Shown one piece after another: positions 1 to 58,746 of a stretch of 58,746 bases of DNA. Positions within the stretch are counted from its first letter, which is position 1; every line of letters starts with the position of its first letter. Position numbers and translations under genes: made by a program. The stretch spans positions 1 to 58,746 of IMG/VR virus record IMGVR_UViG_3300050029_000207. One strand, given 5' to 3'. Origin of the DNA: a virus. Its lineage: Duplodnaviria > Caudoviricetes. The notes under the pieces are model-generated. The model worked only from the letters and a program-made list of their open reading frames with translations. It had not been told where the DNA came from and made no database searches.

Positions 1-127
1 CAAAATCTGGCCGGAATAATCCGCCTATCTGCCCGCAGTGCAAATCCGAACTCCGGCAAATGAGCACGCTCTGGTCAAAATGTCCTAAATGCGGCATCAG
101 AATAATGAACAGCGTGGCCGCGATGCC
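1..127. repeat. terminal overlap identical to 58620-58746 (circular assembly)
   Basis: 127-nt exact repeat at both ends; an ORF reads across the junction. Confidence 0.95.
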
Positions 128-232
128 CAGCGAAAAAAGCTGAGCCACCGCCGACTAAAATCTATGAATATAAATAACCTTCTCGGACAACTGCCATGCG
201 TAACGGCGGTTGGCTCCGGCGACTGGTTGGGC
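125..232 (-). mobile_element. attC: attC site (integron cassette recombination site)
   Basis: plus strand GCCCAGC-GAAAAAA-GCTGAGC...GCTCCGGC-GACTG-GTTGGGC; imperfect inverted repeat with R and L boxes; left core deviates (AGC for AAC). Confidence 0.85.
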
Positions 233-235
233 GTC

Positions 236-286
236 CGACTGCAAGGAGAGCGTCCAATAGGCGTTTCTTGCAGTGATTTGTTAAGC
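236..286 (-). mobile_element. attC: truncated attC (one arm only)
   Basis: GCAGTGATTTGTTAAGCGGCG identical to the right end of the 1328-1427 site. Confidence 0.6.
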
Positions 287-307
287 GGCGAACAACGACA
301 ACCAAAA

Positions 308-751
308 ATGAAAACTAAAATAGAACTGACTGACTCAATCCAAGACGTGCTGTTCAAAATGTCCGAAGGCAATCCCGGCGCTCTGACTGTGTGCCTGGGC
401 ATCCTCGAACACGGCGAGAAAATAGACCCCGACAACGCAATGGGCGGACTCGGAATAATCCTCTCGCTCGACACGCTTGGACTCTACGGCTCAAAAATCT
501 GGATGTTGTTCAGAGACGTGTGTGAAAGCGACCTCGCTCAAATGCTCGCCATGCTGCGTGGGTGGCAACTCGGAATGCTGTCAGAAACCCAAGTGCGTCA
601 CGCGGTCGAAAATCACGGCGATGGCATCAATGTCGCCGACATCTGCCAAAAAGTCACCGAACGTCTGCCGCGCTTCCAACTGAAGCCGCCGAACATAAAA
701 GCTCACCCCACTGCCGCGAAAGCGAGCGTGGACGGCACTGAAAATCTATGA
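308..751 (+). CDS. hypothetical phage protein (cassette cargo); alternative in-frame start at 164 inside attC
   Basis: ORF 89..751; A-rich leader before ATG 308; C-terminus PNIKAHPTAAKASVDGTENL encoded by the next attC arm. Confidence 0.75.
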   Translation: MKTKIELTDSIQDVLFKMSEGNPGALTVCLGILEHGEKIDPDNAMGGLGIILSLDTLGLYGSKIWMLFRDVCESDLAQMLAMLRGWQLGMLSETQVRHAVENHGDGINVADICQKVTERLPRFQLKPPNIKAHPTAAKASVDGTENL

Positions 752-762
752 GTGAAACCAAA
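688..762 (-). mobile_element. attC: partial attC (left arm only)
   Basis: GCCGAAC-ATAAAA-GCTCACC...; 699-762 identical to 52674-52737 of an intact site. Confidence 0.7.
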
Positions 763-918
763 TACGCCACAATGCAAGACCTCGCGGTGTGCTCGTTCAT
801 AAACGCCTCACGCATGGCCGAAGCCGGGCATCTGAAACAGGCATATATGGAAGCCGAATCAGGGCAACGCCAACTGAAAGCGGCGATAGGTGCAATTTCG
901 CCGAACGACCGCGCATGA
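748..918 (+). CDS. small hypothetical protein, 56 aa (MSETKYATMQDLAV...PNDRA)
   Basis: ATGA overlaps with both neighbouring ORFs; below ORF-track cut-off. Confidence 0.6.
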   Translation: MSETKYATMQDLAVCSFINASRMAEAGHLKQAYMEAESGQRQLKAAIGAISPNDRA

Positions 919-999
919 GCCACGCCGCACCAATGACCACCGCCCGCGATAGCGGACTGACGACGCCAATAGGCGTTGGCTCCGTGCGCTTGGTTAGGC
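900..999 (-). mobile_element. attC: attC site
   Basis: GCCGAAC-GACCGC-GCATGAGC...GCTCCGTGC-GCTTG-GTTAGGC. Confidence 0.9.
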
Positions 1000-1346
1000 G
1001 GCGTGCGACAAAACTCTCTGCGTCCGATGTCCTAATAAATCTGCGCGACTGGGCCTGGCTTGAGGCTCGCGTCGAGGCCGAACCGTCAAAGCAAAATATC
1101 TGGCTGGCTGTCCGCGACTGGGCGAACGGAATTGCCGCCAAAAATAAAATTGAACTTACCGCGCCCTGCCCCGAAAACCGCGAACCGCTGACAGACCGGG
1201 ATTTGAGTCTGTCGAATAATTTTGGGAGCGGCGAAAGCCTAGAGCGTGATAAATCTGGCGCAACTATCCATCCGCAAAGTCACCGTTTGGCAAAATGCTC
1301 GCAAGTCCAGATTGCTCCCAATCAGCCGCCTAACGACCGCGCATGA
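915..1346 (+). CDS. hypothetical protein (cassette cargo) starting inside attC
   Basis: ATG at 915 or 933 within attC, reading through GTTAGGC; ends PNDRA in next attC. Confidence 0.6.
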   Translation: MSHAAPMTTARDSGLTTPIGVGSVRLVRRRATKLSASDVLINLRDWAWLEARVEAEPSKQNIWLAVRDWANGIAAKNKIELTAPCPENREPLTDRDLSLSNNFGSGESLERDKSGATIHPQSHRLAKCSQVQIAPNQPPNDRA

Positions 1347-1427
1347 GCCACGCCGCATTAACGACTCCCGCCCGCGATAGCGGAACTGAATGCGCCAACG
1401 GCGGTTCGCAGCAGTGATTTGTTAAGC
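1328..1427 (-). mobile_element. attC: attC site (hybrid arms)
   Basis: GCCTAAC-GACCGC-GCATGAGC...GCAGCAGT-GATTT-GTTAAGC. Confidence 0.8.
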
Positions 1428-1453
1428 GGCGGAATCGTAACACTAAACAAAAA

Positions 1454-1831
1454 ATGAAAACTCAAACCCTCGAAGAATATCACGCCGGGCTAAAGGCTCA
1501 AGGCGTGCCAATCGAACACTGCGCGATGCGCTGCCCGATGTGCGGCACAATCCAAAGCGCGCAAGACCTGATAGCGGCTGGCGCTGGGAAGAACCTCGAT
1601 GAAGTCGAAAAGTATCTCGGCTTCTCCTGTGTCGGAAGATGGACACACCAAAAGCCACCGCCGAAGGAAAAGGGAACACAGCACGGATGCAACTGGACTC
1701 TGGGCGGACTGTTCCAGTGCCACGACCTCACCGTGATAACACCGGACGGCGCGAAGTGTCCCCGCTTCGAGCTATGCACGCCAGAGGAAGCGCAGGCGCA
1801 CATGCACGAGCGCGATACTGTAGCCGCTTAA
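1454..1831 (+). CDS. VVA0879-like Cys-rich phage protein (cassette cargo)
   Basis: CPMCG...FSCVGRW...GCNWTLGGL motifs; stop TAA lies in attC core GCTTAAC. Confidence 0.75.
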   Translation: MKTQTLEEYHAGLKAQGVPIEHCAMRCPMCGTIQSAQDLIAAGAGKNLDEVEKYLGFSCVGRWTHQKPPPKEKGTQHGCNWTLGGLFQCHDLTVITPDGAKCPRFELCTPEEAQAHMHERDTVAA

Positions 1832-1924
1832 CGAAAAAAGCTGAGCCACCGCCGACCTGCGACGTGAACCGCGATAGCGGAACGGACAGCGCCAACGGCG
1901 GTTGGCTCCGGCGACTTGTTAGGC
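1826..1924 (-). mobile_element. attC: attC site
   Basis: GCTTAAC-GAAAAAA-GCTGAGC...GCTCCGGC-GACTT-GTTAGGC; near-identical to 58228-58326. Confidence 0.95.
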
Positions 1925-1951
1925 TGCAACTCGTGAACTGACATAAAATCT

Positions 1952-2203
1952 ATGGAAAACAAAACTGAAACAACTCGGTTCCATGTTGAAAAACGAAACG
2001 GCATCATCGCCGTGTATGACATGAAACATCCGAAATATGATCCAGACAGGCAAGGCTGCCACTCTGACCTGCCGTGGGTAGTCGCGGCGTGGCACGGATA
2101 CAACGACGCCAAAGAAGGATGGTGTCTGTACGACTGGTAAATCTTAAAAGCTGAAAATCTATGTGCCATGCTAAATGCGAAGTGGCCTAACGATCCGAAC
2201 TGA
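1952..2203 (+). pseudogene. cassette cargo gene with probable premature TAA at 2138-2140 (or an intact 62-aa gene)
   Basis: frame continues ILKAENLCAMLNAKWPNDPN* into the next attC as neighbouring cassettes do. Confidence 0.5.
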
Positions 2204-2296
2204 GACACCCGCGACCTATGACTCTCGAAAAACCAGAAACCTTTACGGACAACCCGCAAGCGCCAACGCGGGTTGTCTCGAGTGAGTCTGTTAGGC
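2185..2296 (-). mobile_element. attC: attC site
   Basis: GCCTAAC-GATCCG-AACTGAGACACCCGCG...CGCGGGTTGTCTCGAGT-GAGTCT-GTTAGGC. Confidence 0.85.
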
Positions 2297-2601
2297 CGAC
2301 GGCAACATCGGAACAACTCTACGGAATATCGGAGCAGCCGAAACCGACCTGCCCGATGATAGACTCCGTGATAGCCGACCTGCAAAAGTGCTACCGCGAA
2401 ATGAATCGGTGGGAACGGCACAAAGACGACGCCGAATATCTGGCGCAAGTGCTGGACACCGTGGCGTGGATAATCGGAAACATGGAGCCAGGCCTAGAAA
2501 AAATCCGAGACAATGCAGACAAAATACGCGGATGGGGTCAGGAATGGAAAGACCTCGCCAAAGAACACGCGCCGAAACCGGACGAAACGGAGTCGGCCTA
2601 A
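2218..2601 (+). CDS. hypothetical helical protein (cassette cargo) starting inside attC
   Basis: ATG in attC loop; PTCPMIDSVI...IRGWGQEW; stop in next core. Confidence 0.75.
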   Translation: MTLEKPETFTDNPQAPTRVVSSESVRPTATSEQLYGISEQPKPTCPMIDSVIADLQKCYREMNRWERHKDDAEYLAQVLDTVAWIIGNMEPGLEKIRDNADKIRGWGQEWKDLAKEHAPKPDETESA

Positions 2602-2703
2602 CGAAAAAAGCTGAGCCACCCGCGACTAAAATCTATGCAAATCAATAACCTTCTCGGATTACTGACAGCGCCAACGCGCATTGGCTCCGGCGACTTGTTA
2701 GGT
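2596..2703 (-). mobile_element. attC: attC site
   Basis: GCCTAAC-GAAAAAA-GCTGAGC...GCTCCGGC-GACTT-GTTAGGT. Confidence 0.9.
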
Positions 2704-2729
2704 GCGGACGTGATAACTGAATAAAAATT

Positions 2730-3026
2730 ATGAAAATAAAAATACCGGCGGTGGAAAAAGAAGTCTGCGACATATGCGGACGCGATGGAATACTTGAAAC
2801 ATGCGTGGTGTGTGGAAACCGATACTGCCTGATCTGCCACTGCTATCTTCCGGGCTGCATGGTGCGCCCCGACGTGTGCAAGAAGTGCGACAGCCGCGCC
2901 GACGTGAATCAAATCTCGAAACGCTTCGGGCTGCTCATCCACGACCTATGCAAACAGCGCGAGGCCGAACTGAAACAACTAGCACCTAACAATGTTATTA
3001 GGCCAAACCCGGAATCAGATCACTAA
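2730..3026 (+). CDS. multi-CxxC zinc-binding protein (attI-proximal cassette cargo)
   Basis: CDIC, CVVC, CLIC, CKKC; reads through ACCTAAC into attI-like site. Confidence 0.75.
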   Translation: MKIKIPAVEKEVCDICGRDGILETCVVCGNRYCLICHCYLPGCMVRPDVCKKCDSRADVNQISKRFGLLIHDLCKQREAELKQLAPNNVIRPNPESDH

Positions 3027-3027
3027 C
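2984..3027 (-). mobile_element. attI: attI-like site
   Basis: minus strand GTTAGTG...GTTTGGCCTAAT-AACATT-GTTAGGT: core plus degenerate inverse core, no attC hairpin, at the array end. Confidence 0.65.
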
Positions 3028-3309
3028 ATGAAATACTGGCGCACAAGTGGTTATCGAAAGGCAGCAAGGCGAAGAGGGATTGAGGCTTACTATCGCAAAA
3101 AGGCAGCGTCGGAAGCCATTCCTGAAAACGAAAATGTGTGCAAGCCGAAAATTCGCCACTCATTGAAGACGATTTTGAAATTCGACCATGAACCGCAGAT
3201 GACTTTGACCGTTGACATTCTGCCGTGGGGCGGCTGGTCAATTTCTCCGACGGCAATCGGGAAGAAAATTCAACAGGCCATGATCGGCTATGCTGCTACC
3301 GCCGCCTGA
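3028..3309 (+). CDS. basic hypothetical protein occupying the usual intI position
   Basis: ATG 2 nt after previous stop; 93 aa; no tyrosine-recombinase motifs. Confidence 0.6.
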   Translation: MKYWRTSGYRKAARRRGIEAYYRKKAASEAIPENENVCKPKIRHSLKTILKFDHEPQMTLTVDILPWGGWSISPTAIGKKIQQAMIGYAATAA

Positions 3310-3406
3310 AATACCACCAAGCCACCGAAAGCAGCAAGATTGCCAGACAGATTTTGTCCAAATTCCAAGTGACCATTGACCATTCGTGCGGCGTCATAAA
3401 TTGATT

Positions 3407-52535: not shown

Positions 52536-52726
52536 AGAACCAAGCCGCTCAATCCCTCGGACGCCTTGGCGGTCTGGCGAAGTCGAAAGCCAAGACTGCT
52601 GCCGCGCGTCGGAACGCAAAACTTGGTGGACGCCCGAAGAAACCCAAACGCGCCGCCCGGCTGCCCAACGACCAAGCTCACCCCACTGCCGCGAAAGCGA
52701 GCGTGGACGGCACTGAAAATCTATGA
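52532..52726 (+). CDS. small basic phage protein
   Basis: AAQSLGRLGG..KS.AKTAAARRNAKLGGRPKK; C-terminal tail encoded by attC. Confidence 0.7.
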   Translation: MKNQAAQSLGRLGGLAKSKAKTAAARRNAKLGGRPKKPKRAARLPNDQAHPTAAKASVDGTENL

Positions 52727-52790
52727 GTGAAACCAAAAGCATCGAATCGGAAACGCTAGCGGCAGTTGCGGGTGCAGCGCGTGGTTCGGC
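52663..52790 (-). mobile_element. attC: attC site (distal end of array)
   Basis: GCCCAAC-GACCAA-GCTCACC...GGTGCAGC-GCGTG-GTTCGGC. Confidence 0.85.
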
Positions 52791-52995
52791 TCACCGCGAC
52801 TTCCTCGCATTCCTTCTCTACGCATCGGAAAGCGGTCGGCGTGGAGAACTCCCGTGCCGATGGGGAACGCTGCGCGACGACCTGAAAGAGAAGTGGCTGA
52901 ACACCGCAGACACGAAAATGAACGAATGGCTGGCGAGCGAAGAAGAAGCCCGCAAGAGCAGAGATGCCCATAATCCGAGGGCGTTCTTCTGTTGA
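52723..52995 (+). CDS. hypothetical protein (cassette cargo) starting inside attC
   Basis: ATG in attC loop; stop immediately before next core. Confidence 0.7.
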   Translation: MSETKSIESETLAAVAGAARGSAHRDFLAFLLYASESGRRGELPCRWGTLRDDLKEKWLNTADTKMNEWLASEEEARKSRDAHNPRAFFC

Positions 52996-53120
52996 GCCGA
53001 ACGACCAAGCTCACCCACAGCCGGGTGAGCGGGCAACCAACTGAAACCAAATCTTTATGACACCAGAAACGAATAAATCCGAAGCGCCACCGGCTGTTGC
53101 GGTGCAGCGCGTTGTTAGCC
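52996..53120 (-). mobile_element. attC: attC site
   Basis: GCCGAAC-GACCAA-GCTCACCCACAGCCGG...CCGGCTGTTGCGGTGCAGC-GCGTT-GTTAGCC. Confidence 0.9.
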
Positions 53121-53275
53121 CTCGCTGCCCCCAATGTGGCAAACCAATCGAAACACCTGTGGCGAGAGAAATCACGCAGCGTGATAATCGAAGCCCACGT
53201 GGAATACGGACAAATCGATATGACTTTTGTAGCGTCCAATGCGGGGCACACTACCAAATGGGATGCGAGGGCTAA
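53057..53275 (+). CDS. YacG-like zinc-finger protein (cassette cargo) starting inside attC
   Basis: CPQCGKPI...DFCSVQC; stop in next core. Confidence 0.7.
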
Positions 53276-53410: not shown

Positions 53411-54169
53411 ATGAATATCAAAATCAATTCAGTCTTCGGTTCGCTGAAATTCGAAGGTGACTTCTCGTCGCTGAAAGAATGCGTTATGGCCGCGATTAAA
53501 AGCGATGCCAACCTGCGCGATGCCAACCTGTGCGGTGCCAACCTGTGCGGTGCCAACCTGTGCGGTGCCAACCTGTGCGGTGCCAACCTGTGCGGTGCCA
53601 ACCTGTGCGGTGCTGACCTGTGTGGTGCCAACCTGTGTGGTGCTGACCTGTGCGGTGCCAACCTGTGCGGTGCCAACCTGCGCGATGCCAACCTGCGCTA
53701 TGCCAACCTGTGTGGTGCCAACCTGTGTGGTGCTGACCTGTGCGGTGCTGACCTGCGCGGTGCCAACCTGTGTGGTGCTGATCTGTGCGGTGCCAACCTG
53801 CGCGGTGCTGACCTGTGTGGTGCCAACCTGTGTGGTGCTGATCTGTGCGGTGCCAACCTGCGCGGTGCTGACCTGCGCGGTGCCAACCTGCGCGGTGCTG
53901 ACCTGCGCGGTGCTGATCTGTGCGGTGAGAAAATTAAAACCGCGCGAATCTTCGCGGGATTGTATCGCTATCAAGTATATGCTATTTTGAACACTAAAGG
54001 TCAACGGTTTGTGAAGATGGGCTGCTTATTCAAGTCGCTTGAGGAATGGGAAAAGGTTGGAATCCTTGAATCGAACCTGGCCGAGTTCCCGAACGACGGC
54101 TCGCGCAAAAGCCTTGAGCGCAAAGAAGCATTCGACTTTGCGAAGAATGCAGCCCTTAACCTTGAATGA
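53411..54169 (+). CDS. pentapeptide repeat protein
   Basis: tandem A(N/D)L(C/R)G repeats, 15-bp period at ~53505-53926. Confidence 0.95.
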
Positions 54170-56801: not shown

Positions 56802-57686
56802 ATGAAAATAACAAACAAATTAAATCTACCTGATAACCTCGTCCGCGCCGTCACTTACAGCGACTACAACCGGGGGGATGTTGATTATAGCGTAACGGGT
56901 CTTCTTAACCCGCCACGAATCCTTGCGCTGAAGGCCAAGCATCACGACAAGATCGAAGAGGACGCCAGCGACCTCATATTCGCCGCCATCGGCTCGGCAG
57001 CCCACGAGCTTTTCCGTCGGTCGTCTGACGGCATCAACAAGATCGTTGAAAAGCGGTTCTTCGCAACCGTTGACGGCAAGAAGATCAGCGGTCAGGTGGA
57101 CTTGGCTGAAGACGGCGGCATGATAGAGGATTTCAAGATTTCATCCGTATGGGCGATGACTCACGACGCCAAAGAATCTTGGGAACAACAACTTAACATT
57201 TACCGTTGGCTGTGCAAGCAGAACGGAATCGAGATTAAGGCGTTGAGAATCATTTGCGTTGGCAGGGACTGGTCAAAACGCGAAGCGGCTCGAGATTCAA
57301 ATTACCCCCAGGCGCAGGTGGTCGTGTTCAACCTGAATGTCTGGGACTTGGCCGAAACCGAACGCTTCATCAAAGAGCGCATTGCGCTTCACGAGGCGGC
57401 CAAGGTAACGCTGCCGGAATGCTCCCCTGAAGACCGGTGGCAAAAGGATGACGCCTTTGCAGTGATGAAGGTTGGAAGGAAGTCAGCCGTCAAGATTCAC
57501 CACAAGCGCGAACTGGCGGATCAGCACCTAGAAGTCGCCGGAAAGGGGCATTACCTTCAGGAGCGCAAGGGGACCAGTATCCGCTGTGAGAGCTACTGCT
57601 CGGTGGCACCATTCTGTGAATGGTGGCAGAACAACAAGCTTAAAGAAGATCCGGCAACGGTGATTAGTCCGGAAGAAGCTATCTGA
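56802..57686 (+). CDS. PD-(D/E)XK (Cas4/RecB-like) exonuclease
   Basis: YSVTGLL, IGSAAHE, ISGQVDL, IEDFK, QQLNIY, RCESYCSVAPFC. Confidence 0.85.
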   Translation: MKITNKLNLPDNLVRAVTYSDYNRGDVDYSVTGLLNPPRILALKAKHHDKIEEDASDLIFAAIGSAAHELFRRSSDGINKIVEKRFFATVDGKKISGQVDLAEDGGMIEDFKISSVWAMTHDAKESWEQQLNIYRWLCKQNGIEIKALRIICVGRDWSKREAARDSNYPQAQVVVFNLNVWDLAETERFIKERIALHEAAKVTLPECSPEDRWQKDDAFAVMKVGRKSAVKIHHKRELADQHLEVAGKGHYLQERKGTSIRCESYCSVAPFCEWWQNNKLKEDPATVISPEEAI

Positions 57687-57742
57687 ACCGCGAAGCGGAA
57701 CTGAAGGCGCTATCGGCGGTTAGCTCCATGCGGTTGTTGGGC
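57684..57742 (-). mobile_element. attC: attC right arm only
   Basis: TGAACCGCGAAGCGGAACTGA...GGCGGTTAGCTCCATGC-GGTT-GTTGGGC, homologous to right halves of intact sites. Confidence 0.7.
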
Positions 57743-58227: not shown

Positions 58228-58326
58228 GCCTAACGAAAAAAGCTGAGCCACCGCCGACTCGCGACGTGAACCGCGATAGCGGAACTGACAGCGCCAACGG
58301 CGGTTGGCTCCGGCGACTTGTTAGGC
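58228..58326 (-). mobile_element. attC: attC site
   Basis: GCCTAAC-GAAAAAA-GCTGAGC...GCTCCGGC-GACTT-GTTAGGC. Confidence 0.95.
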
Positions 58327-58346: not shown

Positions 58347-58544
58347 ATGAAAACACTGACTGATACCGACCCGATGCCCTTCGGAAAATACAAGGGCGAA
58401 CCAATGCAAGACGTGCCTGCGAGCTATCTGCACTATCTCTGGCAGAATGGCCTCGCCGCCGACAAGCAATCTAACGTGGCGGACTACATCCGCCGAAACA
58501 TAAACGCTCTGAAATTGGAGCATAAAGATGGTGTCTGGGCGTAG
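58347..58544 (+). CDS. DUF3820-family protein (cassette cargo)
   Basis: MPFGKYKG..MQDVPASYLHYL. Confidence 0.85.
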   Translation: MKTLTDTDPMPFGKYKGEPMQDVPASYLHYLWQNGLAADKQSNVADYIRRNINALKLEHKDGVWA

Positions 58545-58558
58545 TGGCCTAACAAAAA

Positions 58559-58746
58559 ATGAAAACCGAAAACTCACGCCGATACAAATGCGTCCAATGT
58601 GGCGCAAAAGGTCGGCACTCAAAATCTGGCCGGAATAATCCGCCTATCTGCCCGCAGTGCAAATCCGAACTCCGGCAAATGAGCACGCTCTGGTCAAAAT
58701 GTCCTAAATGCGGCATCAGAATAATGAACAGCGTGGCCGCGATGCC
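58559..58746 (+). CDS. triple-CxxC zinc-ribbon protein spanning the circular junction (stop at 141-143)
   Basis: MKTENSRRYKCVQCG...CPQCK...CPKCG...MPSEKS*; missed by ORF track; preceded by isolated core GCCTAAC 58547-58553. Confidence 0.7.
   Translation, partial: MKTENSRRYKCVQCGAKGRHSKSGRNNPPICPQCKSELRQMSTLWSKCPKCGIRIMNSVAAM

Follow-up and report, generated by a model that had tools for sequence, protein, structure and literature searches.

Reversed attC cassettes in a phage genome and the putative start of translation in the apical loops of some of them

The small early genes of the phage studied here are separated by hairpin-forming repeats of the attC type, and several of these repeats contain ATG codons. 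This locus raises the question of whether an attC site, which is a DNA recombination site, also supplies the translation start of the gene that it accompanies. The window, that is, the whole stretch of DNA analysed, is 58,746 nucleotides long and corresponds to positions 1 to 58,746 of the IMG/VR virus record IMGVR_UViG_3300050029_000207 (Duplodnaviria; Caudoviricetes). The explanation arrived at, in which the repeats belong to reversed attC cassettes and a part of these cassettes start their gene in the loop of the site, is considered rather likely as a whole.

Integrase-less attC arrays and their counterparts in host integrons

The record has direct terminal repeats and is rated 100% complete. 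The genome is approximately 58.6 kb long and terminally redundant. Its bases 1-127 are identical to bases 58620-58746 over 127 nt, so that the cassette array at 57.6-58.7 kb runs directly into the region of 1-3 kb, and the gene starting at 58559 spans the genome ends and stops at 143. The minus-strand block codes for the large terminase subunit, portal proteins, a DnaE-type polymerase and a primase-helicase. The small plus-strand genes form a block that extends from approximately 52.2 kb, over the ends, to approximately 3.3 kb, and the attC-type elements sit between these small early genes on the plus strand.

A covariance model built from 17 copies (7 from the window and 10 from related contigs) finds 10 plus-strand elements in the window with E values of 0.0031 or less, while the minus strand at these 10 places scores at most 19.4 bits. 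The elements and associated features are listed in Table 1. PF00589 (tyrosine recombinase domain) has zero matches across the complete 58.7-kb record, and the 10 elements thus form attC clusters without an integrase (CALINs). The phage attC sites are two integrase-less arrays within the plus-strand early-gene block. A Pfam search with ten cargo ORFs yields a single match, a weak, sub-threshold one to DUF7576.

Table 1. Positions of attC-type elements, boxes and ORFs in the window
Feature	Position	Strand	Score (bits)	Remarks
Element D	125..232	+	91.3	Loop ATG 164 (element position 40); AAAATCT leader; same frame as gene 308-751
Truncated element, 5' half only	688..762	+		Repeats 5' half of 52663-52790; missed by covariance model
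Element F	900..999	+	76.2	ATG 915 (position 16, stem); ATG 933 (position 34, loop)
Element G	1328..1427	+	69.2	ATG 1343 opens 24-codon ORF ending at 1417 in 3' arm; cargo from 1454
Element H	1826..1924	+	108.9	99 nt; host-like; loop without ATG; cargo from 1952
Element I	2185..2296	+	82.6	112 nt; loop ATG 2218 at position 34
Cargo ORF	2218..2601	+		127 aa; first ~27 aa attC-encoded; stop is TAA in left box of element J
Element J	2596..2703	+	93.6	108 nt; loop ATG 2635 (position 40); AAAATCT leader
Candidate coupling ORF	2635..2724	+		29 codons; from loop to 3' arm; stop 5 nt ahead of ATG 2730
Cargo gene of cassette J	2730..3026	+		98 aa; extends 36 nt beyond cassette end
Lone box ACCTAAC closing array	2985..2991	+		7/7 complementary to element J right box GTTAGGT
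Element L	52663..52790	+	22.4	Loop ATG 52723 at position 61
Element K	52996..53120	+	24.8	Loop ATG 53057 (position 62) opens ORF 53057-53275, 72 aa, weak DUF7576 match
Degenerate element, left array end	57638..57742	+	22.0	Cargo from 57766; loop without ATG
Element B	58228..58326	+	114.2	99 nt; loop without ATG; cargo from 58347

Several other features accompany the arrays. A 252-aa ORF between the two arrays (53411-54169) consists largely of tandem 15-nt repeats and is pentapeptide-repeat-like, with ANLCG units. A lone GCCTAAC box at 58547-58553 follows the gene 58347-58544 and is itself followed directly by AAAAAATG and the next gene; the unit ending at this box without an attC body may be a fused or eroded cassette. 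The 99-nt site (window 1825-1938) has a summed contig depth of 11,000-38,000 across the peat metagenome runs X1, X2, X6 and X8, as compared with a depth of approximately 20 for the phage in run X1. When four DNA runs were mapped to positions 1-3400, the assemblies were seen to break at the sites, and the joints, which are repeat artefacts, yielded no cassette variant.

The exact 22-letter pattern of the 3' arm was found in 24 stretches of IMG/VR contigs, with 93 further matches. The matches in related phage loci have one orientation per locus and a typical spacing of 150-700 nt. When 84 copies are aligned, 93.7% of the stem cells are paired, as compared with 77.6% in shuffles, and double changes are found in 187 cells, as compared with 58.1 in shuffles (the observed value is reached in 0 of 500 shuffles). 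Slid controls of the same alignment are paired at 29-43%. The consensus fold consists of an outer box helix, an internal loop (5-7 nt in the predicted folds), an inner helix with two single-base bulges in the 3' arm, and an apical region of variable length. The terminal boxes follow RYYYAAC ... GTTRRRY, exactly so in 5 window elements, and the outer helix is 88.8% paired in the 84 copies. The unpaired spacer is longer than that of model attC sites. The hairpin is imperfect, with extrahelical bases on one arm, and the unpaired spacer, extrahelical bases and variable terminal structure are described as features of attC sites, together with a bottom-strand preference of approximately 1000-fold, in PMC8946536 and PMC13108822.

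The boxes pair best when shifted by one site. The right box of one site is complementary to the left box of the next site at 6.24 of 7 positions on average, as compared with 5.4-5.5 for the two boxes of the same site and 5.32 for random pairs. Among 72 adjacent pairs, the shifted pairing exceeds that within a site in 41, falls below it in 10 and equals it in 21. This shifted pairing and the homology boundaries at the boxes indicate a crossover inside the box, with complementary halves around the cargo. The canonical layout, in which a promoterless top-strand ORF is followed by its attC site, is not that of the phage cassettes.

The same sites are abundant in bacteria. Bacterial genome contigs contain a 20-mer from the site in at least 120 stretches, and the titles among the matches listed are mostly those of Verrucomicrobiae, Limisphaerales or Pedosphaera MAGs. 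Some of these host contigs contain 9-14 copies of the site within 8 kb. An integron integrase scores above the TIGR02249 cut-off in all five host genomes searched, and 66 element matches are located in six loci flanking intI. Three sites in chromosomal arrays of Verrucomicrobiae have the same sequence as the phage site at 58228-58326, and the phage site at 1826-1924 differs from a host site by two mismatches. The longer, ATG-bearing phage loops have no close counterpart in the host sample. Verrucomicrobiae are the probable hosts of this phage, and the repeats are genuine integron attC sites of the chromosomal integron family of these probable hosts. The identity of sites in phage and host ties the turnover of the phage accessory genes directly to the host chromosomal integron.

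The repeats are located between early genes, on their coding strand, and have stable predicted RNA folds (-27 to -48 kcal/mol), as would be expected if they were RNA-level phage elements that merely resemble attC sites, such as processing or terminator hairpins or modules like those of T4-type phages, in which promoter-stem-loop modules occur. This possibility is extremely remote, mainly because of the host integrons, in which identical or near-identical copies fill the arrays beside the integrases and are mostly antisense to the genes there. The shifted box complementarity also argues against it, as does the near absence of G.U pairs, of which the inner helix contains seven. Wobble pairs are scarce overall and, when tested, show no strand bias (G.T 26 and A.C 20 among 1317 cells), and a DNA hairpin therefore fits better than an RNA hairpin.

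Polarity of the cassettes

In all six host arrays linked to intI, the elements in the orientation of the model are located 5' of intI, which lies on the same strand and points away from them. This geometry is the canonical divergent layout viewed from the bottom strand. At one of these loci (L160), the array ends beside intI in a lone GCCTAAC box, after which the DNA is attI-like. The window arrays likewise end in lone boxes, one closing the array after element J and the other at 53269-53275, and so does the array at locus L166. The two bulged bases are located in the 3' arm of the model (plus) strand; in structural work on attC, the extrahelical bases of the recombined bottom strand are reported to lie on the arm that corresponds to this 3' arm. 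The passages of PMC8946536, PMC13108822 and PMC4889954 (IntegronFinder) considered here do not specify the arm.

The inheritance of cargo was compared among loci that share it. Two pairs of phage loci were identified by blastn and five by tblastx, and 14 pairs were obtained when host loci were added. In six cargo pairs, the body of the upstream site is 0.88-1.0 identical, while that of the downstream site is 0.58-0.73 identical. Several pairs are alike on both sides, two are alike on neither, and none combines a low upstream with a high downstream identity. In one phage pair (L009_1/L009_7), the homology begins just past the left box, the first six letters of which differ, spans the whole body and the right box, and ends exactly at the next left box. 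The position of intI, the bulges in the 3' arm, the lone end boxes and the joint inheritance of site and cargo together indicate that the plus strand of the window is the attC bottom strand, and hence that each site precedes its own gene, opposite to the arrangement in host cassettes. Sequence comparison places the crossover at RYYYAA|C in the left box, and the unit would thus be the site followed by its cargo. The preliminary description of this DNA had placed the attC site upstream of its own gene, and this placement is borne out by the six host arrays, the lone box beside intI, the 3'-arm bulges and the L009 pair.

The direction of the genes was determined with a codon model, because the longest-ORF call of the strand is uninformative (34 of 70) in this G+C-rich DNA. 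The model was trained on ten large genes of this phage and was applied also to the other phages and the hosts. Of 68 phage units, 63 have their best coding frame on the model strand, but only 34 of 134 host units do; among the host units around intI, 16 of 58 do. Host genes mostly have the canonical direction (100 of 134 units), as exemplified by L160, in which the gene begins approximately 14 nt past the box on the other strand. The phage cassettes are the mirror image of the canonical host cassettes. The host cassettes with the phage-like best frame on the bottom strand, about a quarter of the total, are found at loci L032-L111 and L160-L165, and host arrays may hold phage-type cassettes in silent orientation.

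The family of the protein encoded from 2218 departs from this simple scheme. Three loci of this family share only a segment that starts with TTAGGC in the right box and reaches as far as the next GCCTAAC. The bodies of their upstream sites are 112, 113 and 91 nt long and are unrelated in both stem and loop. A homology that starts at the right box is not predicted by a crossover at the left box only, and the leader of this family has been exchanged at the right box between relatives. This exchange could have occurred by a rare top-strand crossover or by another kind of replacement. The suggestion that the start signal travels with the cassette therefore holds in part: site and cargo are co-inherited in the six pairs, but the start module has parted from the cargo in the 2218 family.

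The exact coincidence of the start of this homology with G|TTAGGC in the right box would also be accounted for if the polarity were canonical, that is, if the plus strand were the top strand, each gene owned the downstream site, and the loop-start ORFs were fusions across a cassette boundary. The stop codons in the left boxes similarly resemble the 'stop in the inverse core' of canonical cassettes. Canonical polarity is nevertheless very unlikely. The location of intI on the other side in the host integrons, the lone box beside attI and the bulges on the 3' arm all contradict it, and it is the upstream site, not the downstream one, that accompanies the cargo in the six pairs. The 2218 family also lacks a common downstream site: these sites differ from one another, and in L166 the downstream site is absent. 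The reversed polarity is therefore retained below.

Candidate translation starts in the apical loops

The genes of this phage have no Shine-Dalgarno motifs; they start with ATGA, and A/T-rich leaders, for example AAAATCT or AAAA, stand before it. The ATGs that the preliminary description had located within attC sites all exist; that at 748 lies in the truncated copy only. According to the predicted folds, the ATGs at 164, 933, 2218, 2635, 52723 and 53057 are in the unpaired apical region, and that at 915 is in the stem. The leaders are also largely of the AAATCT and ACCT types that had been described: AAAATCT precedes the ATGs at 164, 748, 2635 and 52723, GACCT precedes that at 2218, and AAATCTTT precedes that at 53057. 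The start context at 164, 748, 2635, 52723 and 53057 matches the usual one of the phage. The match is poorer at 2218, at 933 and above all at 915, and the leaders of 915 and 2218 are G+C-rich. No loop ATG is present in three of the ten window elements (57638, 58228 and 1826), and the genes of these elements begin 21-28 nt past the site.

Reading across the GTTRRRY core, which had been noticed for most of these ORFs, is seen in 2218-2601, 915-1346, 52723-52995 and 53057-53275, all of which pass through the right-hand box. Element I has a predicted fold of -35.5 kcal/mol (z -3.24), with two single-base bulges in the 3' arm and with ATG 2218 unpaired, and its right box GTTAGGC is translated as V-R-P in ORF 2218-2601. 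Its left box GCCTAAC contains the TAA stop of a 9-codon ORF; this ORF is opened by an orphan AAAATCT-ATG start module at 2153-2190, after the gene 1952-2140. ATG 748 overlaps the TGA stop of the gene 308-751 and opens a 56-aa ORF (748-918), ATG 915 overlaps the TGA of the upstream gene, and an ATGA overlap in the loop of element L joins the stop of the upstream gene to the start of ORF 52723-52995. ORF 915/933-1346 contains no ATG farther downstream.

The true start of the gene 308-751 is ambiguous and may be either 164 or 308. A 3' half-element (233-290), composed of a small hairpin and a GTTAAGC box, follows the complete element 125-232, and the frame from ATG 164 is open through both into this gene. 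An open frame is also found in the consensus 99-nt element, such as that at 58228-58326, in which one of the three frames is fully open. In the 58228-58326 copy this frame is in frame with the downstream gene, so that an upstream gene arriving in that frame would fuse with the downstream gene.

The ATGs at 2218, 915/933, 52723 and 53057 are the only start codons that can include the conserved core of the respective protein. Twelve relatives of the 2218 protein were found; a search for relatives in viral contigs gave none. The conserved core of this family begins at residue ~29, immediately after V-R-P, and contains an invariant block, S31-D49, upstream of the next ATG (M47 is within the block). 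No ATG, GTG or TTG lies in frame between 2218 and the core. The cores are 75-93% identical, but the segment before them varies in both sequence and length. Two relatives begin two residues ahead of the core, and a relative outside any cassette, on a contig without an attC match, begins eight residues ahead of it. Homologues, the alignment of which had been proposed as a check, show the first 20-27 residues to be variable and attC-encoded. The 52723 family has the same pattern, with the core starting right after the right box and a sole start codon in the window copy. The right box is followed directly by the conserved core in all three cargo families aligned (A3, A4 and A5), and no further start codon lies upstream of the core in the window copies. 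The attC-encoded N-terminal peptide of the 915/933 protein (MSHAAP...) heads at least five unrelated proteins in a public protein collection (alignment A5), one of which carries a DPPYG methyltransferase motif. Database proteins with attC-encoded N-termini may in part be products of longest-ORF gene calling.

The anatomy and polarity of the elements, these family relations and the comparative pattern described below are shown by the sequences; initiation by ribosomes at the loop ATGs and formation of the hairpin in the mRNA are inferred. Among 52 confidently framed phage cassettes, 17 have an in-frame, open loop ATG, with no other ATG within 60 nt in nine of them and with one in eight. In 30 cassettes the start is found only after the site, typically 17-36 nt (approximately 25 nt) beyond it, and five have neither a loop start nor one past the site. 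Of 18 confident host units on the model strand, one has an open, in-frame loop ATG. The proposal that the loop supplies initiation or coupling is accordingly supported by the comparative evidence from the three families, but it applies to a limited part of the cassettes, as the loop start is used in only 17 of the 52.

An ATG in a loop of approximately 50 nt is common by chance. The loop ATGs could therefore be by-products of A-rich loops and of ORFs that are open by chance, with the true starts located downstream at unrecognised codons or with the small ORFs unexpressed. The A content is 33% in phage loops and 26% in host loops. In agreement with such a by-product, 24 of 45 loop ATGs are out of the cargo frame, the 21 in frame representing a modest bias (nominal p = 0.04), and the 30 cassettes mentioned above clearly start past the site. 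The number of loop ATGs in 96 distinct phage elements is, however, 96, as compared with 53.6 expected from base composition (a 1.8-fold enrichment) and with 56 for CAT, while it is 58 in 147 host elements, as compared with 60.5 expected, and is thus not enriched. The ATG positions in the phage loops peak at 31-40. ORFs of 45 codons or more begin at a loop ATG in 39 of 98 phage elements and in 14 of 147 host elements (Fisher p = 3e-8, which is nominal, as are the other p-values, because the element copies are related to each other). The loop leaders match the phage's own start context, and ATGA overlaps recur. The invariant block of the 2218 family precedes the next ATG, with no alternative start codon before the core, and the same is true of 52723. 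The by-product reading is thus unlikely, and a genuine use of the loop ATGs in a part of the cassettes is preferred.

The 29-aa peptide that had been predicted to end 5 nt before the real gene is found as described, ORF 2635-2724 having 29 codons and the next ATG being located at 2730. Out-of-frame loop ORFs occur in 19 units with a downstream start; the stop of five of them overlaps the main start as ATGA, and that of one more lies 1 nt before it. ORF 2635-2724 and these five of 19 relatives have the form of coupling ORFs, being short, starting in the site and ending at or near the start of the next gene. A Shine-Dalgarno sequence is absent upstream of them, the leaders being A-rich without GGAG. 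One attC body occurs in two paralogous cassettes, and it provides the main start in the first and a 33-codon coupled ORF in the second.

Upstream genes often end within the following site. Among 69 units, 12 use a TAA in the left box (offset 3) as the stop, and 14 use a TGA at the base of the inner helix (offset 16). The stops of further upstream genes are part of ATGA overlaps in the loop, for example at 748, 915 and 52723.

Proposed mechanism and comparison with known systems

The mobile unit, read along the gene, would consist of the last base of the left box, the attC body, the right box, the cargo and RYYYAA. The apical loop would have gained a second role in a part of the cassettes, because the site lies in the 5' part of the transcript of its own gene. 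The loop would offer the usual A-rich leader of the phage, which lacks a Shine-Dalgarno sequence, together with an ATG. Translation from this ATG may proceed by two routes. By the first, it would continue in frame along the 3' arm, across the right box and into the cargo, giving the protein a variable leader of approximately 20-27 residues (2218, 915/933, 52723 and 53057). By the second, a short ORF would melt the 3' arm and end at or beside the cargo start, as in 2635-2724, leading to reinitiation after termination. The 5' arm would serve to close upstream genes, two frames being covered by the left-box TAA and by the TGA at the base of the inner stem, and the third by the ATGA overlaps in the loop.

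Should ribosomes indeed initiate in attC loops, the DNA recombination site would double as a portable expression adaptor. This would explain how cassettes without a promoter or a ribosome-binding site are expressed anywhere in a phage operon despite a hairpin barrier of the class 1 type. A broader reading is offered tentatively, as possible but far from assured. Verrucomicrobiae phages, and apparently those of other phyla too, would keep a mirror-image cassette pool, in which the attC bottom strand acts in the mRNA as portable punctuation: it would stop the previous gene in two or three frames and supply a loop start without a Shine-Dalgarno sequence and a disposable leader. Cargo shuffled by the host integrase could then be expressed at once, and the leader exchange at the right box would point to a second crossover point.

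Clusters of attC sites in virulent phages, with sites that are recombinable by IntI1, have been published (PMC9892861). The present arrays resemble these phage CALINs in having attC arrays with single small ORFs in phages without intI. The cassettes described in PMC9892861 have the typical direction, with some divergent sites, and start codons in attC are not discussed in its passages on these cassettes, whereas the genes are on the bottom strand here and approximately one third of the cassettes have a loop start.

In class 1 integrons, ORF-11, ORF-17 and ORF-18 of attI1 and short attC ORFs couple translation (Hanau-Bercot 2002 and Jacquier 2009, as cited in PMC8876359). According to the same source, these short attI1 and attC ORFs relieve the hairpin barrier by termination-reinitiation, and N-terminal fusions arise in this way. 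The phage ORFs are similar to these coupling ORFs, in that the start and the initiation region are inside the site, the ORF extends across the crossover, and it ends near the next start (PMC8876359). The class 1 ORFs described there are, however, on the top strand of canonical cassettes, and the attC ORF is owned by the preceding cassette. The phage start is instead located in the bottom-strand apical loop of the gene's own site, without a Shine-Dalgarno sequence, and the ORF is often the cargo protein itself. A reversed phage cassette with a loop start was not found in the main texts of the literature searched. The features that appear to be new relative to this literature are whole arrays of bottom-strand genes, a start placed in the apical loop of the site that belongs to the gene, the lack of a Shine-Dalgarno sequence and the frequent identity of the loop ORF with the cargo protein.

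Sedentary chromosomal integrons, such as the Vibrio superintegron, have homogeneous attC sites. The host arrays examined here resemble the sedentary chromosomal integrons described in PMC13108822, as they contain many near-identical 99-nt sites beside intI and mostly canonical genes. The phage arrays have the same sites, but with reversed genes and longer, ATG-bearing loops. Inverted cassettes are described in chromosomal integrons as well and typically encode toxin-antitoxin pairs with their own promoter (PMC13108822). The phage cassettes are similar to these in that their genes are antisense to the canonical direction of the array. The inverted chromosomal cassettes are, in that account, exceptions with promoters of their own, whereas in the phage the whole array is reversed and is read within a phage operon.
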